Shown: positions 6,436 to 10,034 of the stretch, in pieces
Layout of the letters: every line of letters begins with the position of its first letter
How positions within the stretch are numbered: the first letter of the stretch is position 1
NCBI GenBank assembly: GCA_963809405.1
Contig: CAWEJN010000002.1
Span: 795,175 to 859,174, forward strand
Length of the DNA stretch: 64,000 bases
Origin: an uncultured Actinomycetes bacterium
GTDB taxonomy: Bacteria; Actinomycetota; Thermoleophilia; Gaiellales; Gaiellaceae
Reading direction: 5' to 3'
Notes under the pieces: model-generated
Told to the model about the DNA's origin: nothing
The model's database searches: none
What the model saw: the letters and a program-made list of their open reading frames with translations, nothing else
Made by a program: the position numbers and the translations under genes

Positions 6436-7500
6436 GTGACTCGCCCGCGCACGCTCCTGCTCGCACTCGCGACGCTCGTCCTCGTGGTCGCCGCGTCTGC
6501 CGCAGGCCGCCCGGATTCCGCCCATGTGGCGGCTCGCGTGGCGACGGCGCCGCCCGCCCGCGGCCCGCTCGGGAGCGGAAAGCCGGTCGTCCTCGCGTTC
6601 GCCGGGGACGTGCACTTCGAGGGCTCGCTCCGTTCGAAGCTCGACGCCTCGCCGTCGACGACGCTCGCGCCGGTCGCACCGCTCCTCGGCCGTGCGGACA
6701 TCGCGATGGTCAATCTCGAGACCGCCGTGACCACACGCGGCACGCCGCAGGCGAAGGAGTTCGTGTTCCGGGCCCCCTCGACGGCCTTCGCCGCCCTTCA
6801 GGGTGCGTCGGTCGACGTCGCGACGATGGCGAACAACCACGGGCTCGACTATGGCCGCGTCGGCCTGACCGACTCGCTCGCCGCGGCTCGCCGTTACCAC
6901 TTTCCGGTCGTCGGGATCGGACGGGACGCAGCGCAGGCGTACGCCCCGTATCGCGTGACCGTCAACGGCCAGCGTATCGCGATCATCGGCGCGACCCAGG
7001 TGATCGACGACCAGCTCATCCGCTCCTGGACGGCGGAGCCGAACGACCCTGGTCTCGCGTCCGCCAAGGACGTGCCCCGTCTCCTGGCGGCCGTACGCCA
7101 GGCGCGGCGGACGGCCGACACGGTCGTCGTGTACGTCCACTGGGGCGTCGAGCTGGAGTCGTGCCCCAGTGCCGTCCAGCGCAAGCTCGCGCACCAGCTC
7201 GTGGCGGCCGGCGCCGACGTGATCGTCGGCAGCCATGCCCACGTGCTCCTCGGCGGCGGCCGGCTGGGTAAGGCGGTCGTCGACTACGGCCTCGGCAACT
7301 TCGCCTTCTACGCGACGAGCGAGGAGACGACGCGATCGGGCGTCCTTTTCGTGACCATGACCGGCCGCCGTGTGGATGCCTATCACTGGGCACCCGCGCG
7401 CATCAACGACGGCGTGCCGAACCCCCTGAACGGCGCCGAGGCGAGCTCGGCACTCGCCTCGTGGCGCTCGCTGCGAGGGTGCACCGGACTCGGCCGGTAG
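6436..7500 (+). CDS. CapA/PgsA-family metallophosphatase-like protein with signal peptide
   Basis: GTG 6436 (VTRPRTLLLALATLVLVVAASAAG). Motifs AFAGDVHFE, MVNLETAV, ATMANNHGLDYG, VVVYVHWGVE, GSHAHVLLGG and GLGNFAFY are typical of the CapA family. Confidence 0.8.
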   Translation: MTRPRTLLLALATLVLVVAASAAGRPDSAHVAARVATAPPARGPLGSGKPVVLAFAGDVHFEGSLRSKLDASPSTTLAPVAPLLGRADIAMVNLETAVTTRGTPQAKEFVFRAPSTAFAALQGASVDVATMANNHGLDYGRVGLTDSLAAARRYHFPVVGIGRDAAQAYAPYRVTVNGQRIAIIGATQVIDDQLIRSWTAEPNDPGLASAKDVPRLLAAVRQARRTADTVVVYVHWGVELESCPSAVQRKLAHQLVAAGADVIVGSHAHVLLGGGRLGKAVVDYGLGNFAFYATSEETTRSGVLFVTMTGRRVDAYHWAPARINDGVPNPLNGAEASSALASWRSLRGCTGLGR

Positions 7501-7531
7501 CCCCAGTAACGGGGCTACACTGGGCCGTCGC

Positions 7532-7604
7532 GGGCCGTTAGCTCAGCTGGTAGAGCAGGGGACTCTTAATCCCAAGGTCGAAGGTTCGAATCCTTCACGG
7601 CCCA
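7532..7604 (+). tRNA. tRNA-Lys (anticodon CTT)
   Basis: Manual cloverleaf. Acceptor GGGCCGT/ACGGCCC. D arm GCTC-AGCTGGTA-GAGC. Anticodon stem-loop GGGGA-CTCTTAA-TCCCA (one G.A mismatch at the stem base). T arm GAAGG-TTCGAAT-CCTTC. Discriminator A. CCA not encoded. Confidence 0.9.
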
Positions 7605-8467
7605 CTCTGCCCGTCGCCTTCACGCGGGGACAGACGACTCCGGTGCGCGGCGGCTTCCTCGATCGACCGGCGGACCGCATCCGCATCTTCCGCACGCAAG
7701 GCTTTCTCGAGCTCCTCGATCCGCCCGCGGTACTCGCCGAGCGCGGCGGCGAGAAGCTCGTGGTTCTCGAGGAAGATGTCGGTCCAGACCCGCGGATTGG
7801 CGCCGGCGACCCGGGTCATGTCCCGGAACGACGCGCCGGATTGCGCCATTGGAGCGAGCCCTTCGAACTGCGCGCCGCCGGCCTGCGTGACGAGCGCGTT
7901 GGCCAGCGCGTGAGGGAGATGGCTGACGAGGGCGACAAGGCCGTCGTGCGTTTCCGCCTCGATCTCGAGCGGAGACGCGCCGAGCTCCGTAGCGAAGGCG
8001 GTGGCGACGTCGCGATGTGTCGCATCCCCGTTGGGAAGCGGCGTCACGAACCACGTCGCCCCGTCGAAGAGATCCGCTCTCGCAGCCTCGGGGCCGGCGG
8101 CCTCCGACCCGCACAGCGGATGACCGCCGACGAAGTTGCGCACATCGGCCAACTCCGCACAGATGCGGCCTTTCGTCGAGCCGACGTCCGTGATCGTGCG
8201 CTGCTCGTCCGCGAGCCCGGAGACGGCGGCAACGATCTTCGGAATGGTGCGTACGGGAGTCGCGACGACGACGAGATCGGCTCCTTCGGCAGCATCGGCG
8301 AGCCCCTCGGCGGCCACGTCGATCGCATCGCGCTCGCGCGCGGCGGCGAGCGTCTCGCGATCGGCGTCGAAGCCCGCCACGCGCTCGACCCCCGCGCGCT
8401 TGGCTGCAAGGCCGACCGAGGCCCCCATCAGCCCCGTTCCGACCACGGCCAGTCGCCGAACCGTCAC
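7595..8467 (-). CDS. tyrA: prephenate/arogenate dehydrogenase
   Basis: 290 aa. N-terminal Rossmann motif [25 protein letters not shown] and [10 protein letters not shown] are typical of TyrA-family dehydrogenases. The last 10 nt overlap the 3' end of tRNA-Lys on the opposite strand. Confidence 0.85.
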
Positions 8468-8483
8468 GCCGTCGCTCCCGCGC

Positions 8484-8513
8484 TTGACCGTTCTTCGGGC
8501 ATCCGGCTATCCT
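8484..8513 (+). promoter_or_regulatory. candidate sigma-70-type promoter (TTGACC - 18 nt - TATCCT) for the aro leader
   Basis: TTGACC at 8484-8489 and TATCCT at 8508-8513 in the tyrA/aro divergent spacer. The predicted TSS lies only a few nt before the leader ATG at 8525. Confidence 0.45.
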
Positions 8514-8524
8514 GGCTCAACTCG

Positions 8525-8593
8525 ATGTTCACCGCCTCGAACAGCCCGGCGTTCTACTACTACATGCGCGAGCGGGGCGGGAGCGTCGCCTGA
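8525..8593 (+). CDS. 22-aa Phe/Tyr-rich leader peptide ([22 protein letters not shown])
   Basis: Short ORF directly upstream of the DAHP synthase/chorismate mutase gene. It contains an FYYY run plus an earlier F, and is followed 35 nt later by an intrinsic-terminator hairpin. Confidence 0.6.
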
Positions 8594-8627
8594 TCTGATC
8601 CAGGCCGCACAGCCCGTTCCGCCCCAG

Positions 8628-8655
8628 AGACCTTCCGAGAGGAAGGTCTTTTCGT
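8628..8655 (+). terminator. attenuator-type intrinsic terminator
   Basis: Perfect 9-bp stem AGACCTTCC / GGAAGGTCT with GAGA loop, followed by TTTTCGT. It ends 6 nt before the aro ATG at 8661. The 3' arm contains the only SD-like purine run (GAGAGGAAGG). Confidence 0.65.
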
Positions 8656-8660
8656 ATCCC

Positions 8661-9803
8661 ATGACGCAAACCGAGCACCCCCACACCGAGACGAGCAGCC
8701 CGTTCCCACTCGCGGAACGACGAGGCCGCGCCACGGTCGTCGAGATCGGCGGCGTGCCGATCGGAGGTCCCGACCTCGCGCTCGTCGCAGGGCCGTGCTC
8801 CGTGGAGTCGGAGGTGCAGCTCCGTGAGACGGCGCTCGCAGCCAGGGCGGCCGGGGCGACCATCCTGCGCGGCGGCGCGTTCAAGCCACGCACGTCGCCG
8901 TACGCGTTCCAGGGCCTCGGCGAGCAAGGGCTCGCACTTCTTCGTCGCATCGGCGACGAGACGGGGATGCCCGTCGTGACGGAGGCGCTCGACCCGACTC
9001 AGGTCCCCCTCGTTGCGACCTACGCGGACGCGATCCAGATCGGCTCGCGGAACATGCACGTCGCTCCGCTCCTCCGCGCCGCCGGCGCCTCGGGCCTTCC
9101 CGTCCTCCTGAAGCGCGGGATGTCGGCGACGCTCGAGGAGTTCCTGCTCGCCGCCGAGACGGTCCTGCTCGAGGACAACGAGCGCGTCGTCCTCTGCGAG
9201 CGCGGGATCCGAACCTTCGACACGTACACGCGCAACTGCCTGGATGTCGGCGGCATCGCGTCGCTCAAGCGCCTGACGCACCTTCCCGTGCTCGCGGATC
9301 CGAGCCACGCCACCGGGCGTCGCGAGCTCGTCGCCGACACGGCTCTCGCGGCGGTTGCGGCGGGCGCCGACGGCCTTGTCGTCGAGGCGCACGTGGACCC
9401 GGCGTCGGCGCTCTCCGATCCGGACCAGCAGCTCCCTCCGGCCGAGCTCGCCGAGCTCGCCGAGCGCGTCCGGCGAGTGGCGCTCGCCGTCGGCCGCTCC
9501 CTCGGCAACCCGCACCCGGGAAGACGAGCCGACGAGCGCCCACCCGACGGCTTCGTCGGCCGGCTCCGCGAGGAGATCTCGGAAAACGACCGTGGGATCG
9601 TCGAGGCGATCAACACGCGGCTCGAGCTCGTCGCGCAGATGCAGAGGTACAAGGCCGCGAACGGGATCGAATTCCACGATCCGCGGCGCGAGCGGTCGCT
9701 CCTGCGATCGCTCCAGGAGACGAACCACGGGCCGCTCTCGCCCGAGGGGCTCGAGGAGATCCTGCTCACGCTCCTCGATCTCACGAAGCGCGAGGTCGCT
9801 TGA
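8661..9803 (+). CDS. 3-deoxy-7-phosphoheptulonate (DAHP) synthase, type I-beta, fused to a C-terminal chorismate mutase (AroQ-like) domain
   Basis: ATG 8661 (MTQTEHPH...). DAHPS/KDO8PS-type core ([53 protein letters not shown]). A C-terminal ~90 aa helical segment ([30 protein letters not shown]...[11 protein letters not shown]) resembles an AroQ chorismate mutase. Confidence 0.88.
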
Positions 9804-10034
9804 ACGTGACTCGAATCGAGGATTCGACGCGCGCAAAGCGGGGTACCGCAGTCACATGGTTCCCGCATTCGAGCTCGACTGCGAACCGCAGCTCGGCCCG
9901 ACGAGCGTCGCGCCGCCGCGTTTGCGGCTCGTAGAGGCCGGAGAAACCGCCACTCCGGGCGCTCGTCTCCCTATCGGGGAACCGGGGCGGGCGCCCACCT
10001 CGTTGACGAGACGCGTTTCACCGGAGCCCGCCGG

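Follow-up and report, generated by a model that had tools for sequence, protein, structure and literature searches.

A putative tyrosine-codon leader-peptide attenuator upstream of a DAHP synthase-chorismate mutase gene in an uncultured Gaiellaceae bacterium, and its tryptophan-codon relatives

The DNA analyzed here, a window of 64,000 nucleotides (nt) from an uncultured bacterium of the family Gaiellaceae (class Thermoleophilia; assembly GCA_963809405.1, contig CAWEJN010000002.1, positions 795,175 to 859,174), carries a candidate transcription attenuator in front of aroG-CM, the gene of a type I-beta DAHP synthase with a C-terminal chorismate mutase. This gene occupies positions 8661-9803 of the window on the plus strand, as do all features below unless stated otherwise, and its 380-amino-acid product, starting at the ATG at 8661, matches the Pfam families DAHP_synth_1 (2.4e-71) and CM_2 (2.4e-15); the closest named homologues are bifunctional DAHP synthase/chorismate mutase (DAHPS/CM) proteins from a Gaiellaceae metagenome-assembled genome. 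A translatable short open reading frame (ORF), the leader ORF, sits between the promoter and the biosynthetic gene, in the same place as in all the relatives described below. The promoter, at 8484-8513 (-35 box TTGACC 8484-8489, an 18-nt spacer and -10 box TATCCT 8508-8513), is the sole sigma-70-like match of a consensus scan of 7400-10000, against a mean of 0.0 in shuffled sequences. On the minus strand, tyrA (prephenate dehydrogenase, Pfam PDH_N and PDH_C; 7595-8467, start GTG 8467) is transcribed divergently and is separated from the leader ATG by 57 nt (8468-8524); it is context only, not lying downstream of the attenuator. The promoter, the identity of the downstream gene and the divergent tyrA across a 57-nt spacer had all been recognized in a preliminary description of this DNA, whose coordinates proved correct to within one base, the leader ATG being at 8525.

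The leader ORF, recovered from the ORF listing and by reading of the sequence, comprises 22 codons plus TGA (8525-8593) and includes, as had been noticed, three consecutive Tyr codons (TAC TAC TAC, 8555-8563), the putative sensor codons, which are conserved as YYY, YY or YTY in the leaders of the Tyr type. The last of them begins 10 nt ahead of the motif AGCGGGG, with which the conserved RNA core starts. Since the -10 box ends 11 nt ahead of the leader ATG, there is no room for a Shine-Dalgarno (SD) sequence, and the ORF is near-leaderless. The preliminary description had read the peptide as a Phe/Tyr-rich signal, of which only the Tyr part holds: the Phe codons are lost in orthologues while the Tyr codons are kept, and the signal is therefore Tyr rather than Phe/Tyr.

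Two adjoining helices, named here P_A and T, make up the fold of the leader region (-58.4 kcal/mol, z = -2.7). In the minimum-free-energy (MFE) fold, the GC-rich P_A pairs 8572-8585 with 8606-8625 and encloses a small apical hairpin (GCCUG/CAGGC, 8588-8605), whose loop contains the leader stop TGA (8591-8593) and a TGA in a second frame (8596-8598). The core 5' strand of P_A, GCGGGGCGGGA (8572-8582), belongs to the leader ORF and pairs in two registers with the core 3' strand, CCCGUUCCGCCCC (8612-8625), in which changes are one-sided exchanges between GC and GU that keep the pairing. T is an intrinsic terminator between the leader ORF and aroG-CM (8626-8652), formed by the stem 8626-8636/8641-8651, the loop GAGA (8637-8640) and a T-run (8649-8652). 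The perfect 9-bp hairpin AGACCTTCC-GAGA-GGAAGGTCT followed by TTTT, which had been seen earlier, was confirmed at 8628-8649 and lengthens to 11 bp (-17.4 kcal/mol). Its T-run consists of four T, the first of which doubles as the last base of the stem, and a simple terminator scan missed the hairpin because it demands five. The run ends 8 nt before the ATG at 8661, and not 6 nt as first given. The pairing GGGGCGG (8574-8580)/CCGCCCC (8619-8625), which had been put forward as an alternative to the terminator, is part of P_A and does form in the MFE fold; as an antiterminator it was rejected, because it abuts T without overlapping it and coexists with it in every fold. It is more likely an anti-antiterminator or a pause helix than an alternative to the terminator. 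Reading by eye revealed no complementarity that would extend P_A into the terminator or carry the T stem to the P_A 3' strand. Rfam gave no match at E<=10 within 8300-8800, and four related loci returned only chance snoRNA matches below threshold.

Conservation was assessed without bias in six distinct orthologous spacers, which were fetched via the protein and not via the RNA (76-88% identity to the aroG-CM product of the window). The divergent order of tyrA and aroG-CM is kept in all orthologous loci, with spacers of 194-248 nt, and all six spacers keep the promoter, the short ORF, the core and the terminator. At the sequence level they retain AGCGGGGCGGGA(G/A)(C/T)GTCGCCTG, the strand CCCGTTCCGC and the hairpin GACCTTCC-loop-GGAAGGTC-T4-6. 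The encoded peptides have different N-termini (MTSPSPRPSYYY.., MTFASHQRGSYYY.., MTFTSHERTSYY..; further leader peptides are MTSPSPRPSYYYAGPAGRERRLD, MTFASHQRGSYYYASPAGRERRLD and MTFTSHERTSYYACPAGRERRLD), the N-terminal half being replaced and the Phe codons lost, and YYY, YY or YTY is kept in all six. Past the Tyr codons, the reading frame through the core differs, giving ..AGRERRLI/D* in the orthologues, whose ORFs terminate at the second TGA of CCTGAnCTGA, and ..ERGGSVA* in the window; the constraint therefore acts on the RNA and not on the peptide. The comparison of orthologous upstream regions that the preliminary description had recommended thus finds Tyr codons, helix and terminator all maintained. 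A whole-protein DAHPS-CM scan of genome contigs, driven by a pan-bacterial DAHPS motif, yielded among the matches listed only genes 50-59% identical from other phyla (L001-L080), which are uninformative for the leader.

A metagenome scan with AGCGGGGCGGGANNGTCGCCTG retrieved at least 120 stretches, from which a few chance matches were removed. Together with the window and the protein-fetched orthologues, the matches make up a family of at least 114 loci (99 unique) with leader ORF, core and terminator, and all family counts below refer to the matches listed, the window and the orthologues. Only 10 unique leaders are of the Tyr type, all with YYY, YY or YTY; the remaining 89 are of a Trp type with W-x-W-x-W, whose consensus is M-T-x5-W-x-W-x-W-R-H-E-R-G-G-S-V-A* and whose core is in the same frame as in the window. 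Next after the terminator comes trpE, as called from the Chorismate_bind and Anth_synt_I_N domains, in all Trp-type loci for which downstream sequence is available (92/92), and aroG-CM in 12/12 Tyr-type loci; in one Trp-type locus (L158), the genes past trpE read by eye as trpD, a trpC/F fusion and trpA. Since an identical RNA cannot tell Tyr from Trp and only the codons differ, the swap points to the ribosome as the sensor, and this is the strongest in silico evidence that we have. A fuzzy search of 1.26 Mb of retrieved sequence plus the window disclosed no diverged extra copies and no leaders for other amino acids.

The geometry of the family is fixed. A -35-like box at a spacing of 17-19 nt from a TAnnnT -10 box is present in 95/99 unique members (TTGACG in 76, TTTGAC in 10 and TTGACC in six), and the -10 box lies 7-8 nt from the leader ATG in 79/98, against 11 nt in the window, so that most leader ORFs are leaderless. 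Three sensor codons are found in 83/89 Trp-type and 7/10 Tyr-type leaders, and the last one is 10-11 nt from the core in 97/99 members; counted from its first base to AGCGGGG, this makes 10 nt for the window and for 87/89 Trp-type members, and 11 nt for the other Tyr-type members. The leader stop codon always falls within the apical loop, which has stops in two or three frames in 83/89 Trp-type members and in all three (CCUGAnCUGAnCUAG) in 60/89. Two frames are stopped in the window (TGA 8591 and TGA 8596), and the Tyr-type orthologues use the second of them. These multiple stops may be a safeguard that halts any ribosome in the apical loop, including one frameshifted at a hungry codon.

In an alignment of 97 sequences (A1, apical loop in columns 80-100), RNAalifold recovers the P_A core and part of T. 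When P_A (13 bp) and T (10 bp) are imposed explicitly, 95.2% of the cells pair, compared with 36-60% when the partners are slid by 1-3 columns, and 14 cells carry changes on both sides, a number reached by 0/500 shuffles. P_A is paired in 96% across 94 distinct sequences, its 3' strand varying nearly always between GC and GU and its 5' strand being invariant by ascertainment. The hairpin with its U-run occurs in 96/97 aligned members (one detection is spurious), and T shows true compensation, with AU for GC in L105 and L167 and UA, UG or CG at one pair. Between TrpE pairs that are 65-75% identical, the P_A 3' strand and the T 5' arm retain 81% identity, as against 51% in the N-terminal part of the leader, 57% in the apical loop and 31% in the T loop.

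From these sequence comparisons we consider it probable, and hold this with considerable confidence, that a ribosome-mediated leader-peptide transcription attenuator couples the transcription of aroG-CM to the supply of charged tRNA-Tyr. Leader-peptide attenuation of this gene had been proposed in the preliminary description and is borne out by the conservation of Tyr codons, helix and terminator and by the Trp/Tyr codon swap (92/92 and 12/12). We infer the direction of regulation as follows. Transcription would begin a few nt ahead of the leader ATG, which makes the ORF near-leaderless. With ample Tyr, the ribosome would pass the YYY codons and the P_A 5' strand and halt at the TGA in the apical loop, covering 8578-8587; the terminator (8626-8651 and the U-run) would then form and transcription would end before aroG-CM. 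With scarce Tyr, the ribosome would stall at the Tyr codons and, at the last one, its leading edge would touch the base of P_A 10 nt downstream. The weakened P_A would free CGGGAG-GUC for pairing with GAC-CUUCCG of the terminator 5' arm, and this antiterminator would block the terminator and let RNA polymerase read into aroG-CM. Without translation, P_A and the terminator would both form, and the default would be termination. The mechanism needs a ribosome at the last sensor codon with its edge at the base of P_A, a requirement in keeping with the invariant spacing of 10 nt.

The candidate antiterminator, whose identity we infer from complementarity, has as its 5' strand CGGGAG-C-GUC (8578-8587) and pairs with 8629-8637 (GAC-CUUCCG). 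In the window the pairs are C8578-G8637, G8579-C8636, G8580-C8635, G8581-U8634, A8582-U8633 and G8583-C8632, continued past a bulged C8584 by G8585-C8631, U8586-A8630 and C8587-G8629, for a total of -13.3 kcal/mol. Because it shares CGGGA (8578-8582) with P_A, the latter would act as an anti-antiterminator. Among upstream partners for the T 5' arm, RNAduplex consistently ranks first the G-rich strand in its 3' half, G(G)GCGGGAGCGUCG, with duplex energies of -11 to -17 kcal/mol across the family compared with -14 to -17 kcal/mol for T. The strands can pair in 97.2% of cells, versus 32-61% when slid. In 73/97 members the 5' arm of T reads CCUUCC, while the 3' arm varies (GGAGGG, GGGAGG, GGAAGG or GGGGGG), and a constant arm with a varying partner fits a second pairing role. 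Furthermore, 51% of the 55 distinct arm/loop combinations have T loops in the top quartile of possible loops for extending the antiterminator, and in one member with an aberrant T (L162) the arm and loop hold CCCGCCC, by eye a perfect complement of GGGCGGG.

Several results weigh against this attenuation mechanism. The antiterminator shows no covariation, its 5' strand being fixed by the search pattern, and the enrichment of complementary T loops is modest. Most family members were found by an exact 20-base pattern, which inflates the apparent conservation of the core, and the lack of variation in the G-rich strand of Trp-type members is therefore partly circular. The T-run of the window, with four U, is short. 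T forms in full-length folds for every placing of the ribosome that was tried (none, first sensor codon, last sensor codon and stop); folding with ribosome-footprint constraints, a check named in the preliminary description, accordingly gave P_A and T everywhere, and no constrained full-length fold abolished T. The antiterminator is the MFE structure only in transcripts that end before the T 3' arm and with a footprint reaching from the A-site to +15 to +17 nt (in the window, only with a ribosome covering the A-site + 16 nt), and even then in just 6/9 Tyr-type and about 40% of Trp-type members, with a gain of only 1-2 kcal/mol. A weak antiterminator that wins kinetically over a stronger terminator is, however, also the arrangement in the trp operon of E. 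coli. Finally, P_A would stay intact if the ribosome stalled at the first sensor codons, so that the model offers no reason for keeping three of them; by pure conjecture, P_A might pause RNA polymerase until the ribosome arrives, which would give the first two codons a role.

A different switch operated by the same leader-peptide sensor is a possibility that we regard as unlikely. Here the intact P_A would itself block termination, whether by abutting T in the RNA exit channel, as a pause or antitermination signal for RNA polymerase or by binding a protein factor, and a ribosome reaching the stop would melt P_A and thereby license termination. The direct contact of the two helices (linker of 0-4 nt) agrees with such a scheme, as do the failure of folds to give a robust antiterminator and a sequence conservation far beyond the needs of a helix, seen in protein-fetched orthologues down to 76% identity; a stall at any sensor codon would leave P_A intact, explaining the three spread W codons. 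Nevertheless, the invariant distance of 10 nt from the last sensor codon to the core suggests that the ribosome must touch the base of the helix, and a second pairing accounts better for the additional constraint on the T 5' arm. Steric antitermination by an adjoining helix has no precedent that we know of, and the scheme predicts constitutive readthrough of untranslated transcripts.

Control at the level of translation, which the preliminary description had allowed for, appears improbable. The hairpin 8626-8651 would in that case sequester GAGAGGAAGG as the SD sequence of aroG-CM, to be opened by translation of, or stalling on, the leader, and the purine run is indeed located in the hairpin loop and 3' arm, with no other SD-like sequence ahead of the ATG at 8661. 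However, it ends 14 nt ahead of that ATG, a poor spacing, and the distance from the T-run to the start codon ranges from 8 to 66 nt in orthologues and from 0 to 31 nt in Trp-type members, one of which (L095) has a separate SD-like AGGAG downstream of the hairpin. The U-run that follows the stem across the members is, moreover, the signature of an intrinsic terminator. Least probable of all, in our judgement, is a fortuitous ORF accompanying a conserved RNA that is either a riboswitch-like element binding a ligand or protein or a constitutive partial terminator or insulator between divergent genes. The high conservation of a core that no Rfam family explains would be expected of such an element, yet the sensor codons match the pathway in every case (W with trpE in 92/92 loci, Y with aroG-CM in 12/12), a distinction that an identical core alone cannot make; the start of the ORF is locked to the promoter and its stop to the apical loop, and it persists despite the drift of its N-terminal sequence.

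Further observations concern the neighbouring genes. The tyrA gene has an SD-like GGGAG 7 nt ahead of its GTG, within 8468-8482 of the minus strand (reverse complement read by eye), and the consensus scan of 7400-10000 found no sigma-70-like promoter for it, so that any tyrA promoter must sit inside the opposite-strand leader ORF; if one exists, the two divergent transcription units, tyrA and leader/aroG-CM, may interfere with each other. At its other end, the final 10 nt of the tyrA ORF (7595-8467, minus strand) are overlapped by a tRNA gene (7532-7604, plus strand; Rfam, 72 bits). In three orthologues of 76-78% identity, a second small ORF of 17-18 codons is situated about 20 nt past the terminator (L085:795-860, L091:1441-1510 and L094:1379-1440), and the stop of this ORF shares bases with the GTG at which aroG-CM starts (GTGA), an arrangement suggestive of translational coupling. 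The window has the equivalent codons joined in frame to the N-terminus of the enzyme.

DAHPS-CM paralogues (65-75% identical) were also encountered as the last genes of trpE-trpG-aroGCM or trpB-trpA-aroGCM operons (L086, L088 and L089), with start and stop codons overlapping those of their neighbours, and four paralogues inside trp operons (P0007, P0020, P0034 and P0013) have no leader of their own. Some relatives thus seem to keep one DAHPS-CM copy under Trp-operon control and another beside tyrA. In eight loci of one sub-lineage (L095, L096, L107, L136, L149, L157, L174 and L196), a stand-alone chorismate mutase ends just upstream of the Trp leader and trpE, and on the opposite strand an N-terminally extended DAHPS is in an operon with tyrA (DAHPS-tyrA). 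The divergent spacer of about 40 nt, too short for a Tyr-type leader, was searched for one and none was found; it contains TAGTCTAG/AGTGTAG-like motifs. Two of these loci (L149:1745-1920 and L174:3474-3643) have between tyrA and DAHPS an insert of about 170 nt that is absent from the sister loci. It lies between the arms of a long inverted repeat (GTGCCCC...GGGGCAC), has palindromes inside and resembles a small mobile or structured element.

On a broader scale, a more tentative proposal, possible rather than probable, is that the window element belongs to a widespread and hitherto undescribed family in Gaiellales-like Thermoleophilia, in which one near-invariant cassette of about 80 nt (G-rich strand, stop-rich apical loop, C-rich strand and terminator) would have been re-targeted by a mere swap of sensor codons, trpE having W-x-W-x-W and DAHPS-CM having YYY. 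The topology would be nested, the stalled ribosome acting at a fixed 10-nt ruler as a wedge at the base of the anti-antiterminator helix, and stops in three frames would catch frameshifted ribosomes in the apical loop. This natural exchange of codons, on an RNA that is otherwise identical, comes close to an evolutionary version of the classic codon-replacement experiment, and the platform is a good test case for how the position of a ribosome is converted into a termination decision. Being compact and modular (promoter, leaderless ORF and about 80 nt of RNA), it could also serve as a convenient chassis on which to engineer sensors of amino acids for high-GC bacteria. If the attenuator is confirmed, it would provide a clean Tyr-specific example of leader-peptide attenuation and would extend the mechanism to a deep, mostly uncultured class of actinobacteria that is abundant in soil.

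Leader-peptide attenuation is a textbook mechanism for trp, pheA, his and other operons. As in trpL, pheL, hisL and thrL of the Enterobacteria, the element described here has a short ORF with clustered codons for the end product, followed by an intrinsic terminator and a biosynthetic gene or operon, and we propose that here too the position of the ribosome chooses between alternative RNA pairings, with termination as the default of the untranslated transcript. Unlike those leaders, its ORF is leaderless or near-leaderless, its candidate antiterminator is short and bulged, and its strands are nested (A:B, A':C, C:D) and not linear (1:2, 2:3, 3:4); the platform is, in addition, almost invariant, common to Trp and Tyr sensors and without a match among Rfam leaders. 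The leaderless cysteine-rich upstream ORFs of mycobacteria likewise sense an amino acid by their codon content, with mainly translation-dependent effects on downstream expression, but are not known to use a conserved intrinsic terminator platform. For the first committed step of the aromatic pathway, to our knowledge, leader-peptide attenuation has been documented experimentally only for aroF of Corynebacterium so far. A full-text literature search that combined leader peptides or attenuation with the genera of Thermoleophilia found nothing relevant among the papers listed, and no description of the W-x-W-x-W platform of Gaiellaceae relatives was found in the literature.

A precedent, which the preliminary description had correctly named, is the Phe-Tyr-Phe leader (aroR) upstream of aroF in C. 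glutamicum, noticed by RNA-seq (PMC4046766) and reported to act by transcription attenuation, with a response to Phe but none to Tyr (Neshat et al. 2014, as summarized in PMC11802643). Both are actinobacterial leaders with aromatic codons upstream of a DAHP synthase gene, but aroR belongs to the Corynebacteriales and to aroF, and the present leader to Gaiellales-like Thermoleophilia and to an I-beta DAHPS-CM fusion; the summarized response of aroR is to Phe, whereas only Tyr codons are conserved here. An early comparative survey of actinobacteria that included Rubrobacter described no conserved RNA element ahead of genes for Tyr or Phe, and predicted trp attenuators in Streptomyces and Corynebacterium, with Trp-rich leader ORFs and a terminator/antiterminator upstream of trpE (Seliverstov et al. 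2005, PMC1262725). The W-x-W-x-W copies share with these the Trp-rich leader and the terminator ahead of trpE and differ from them in coming from uncultured soil relatives of Gaiellaceae. The window element is probably a further leader-peptide attenuator, and the shared invariant platform, the nested topology and the three-frame stops could be new at the level of the family.

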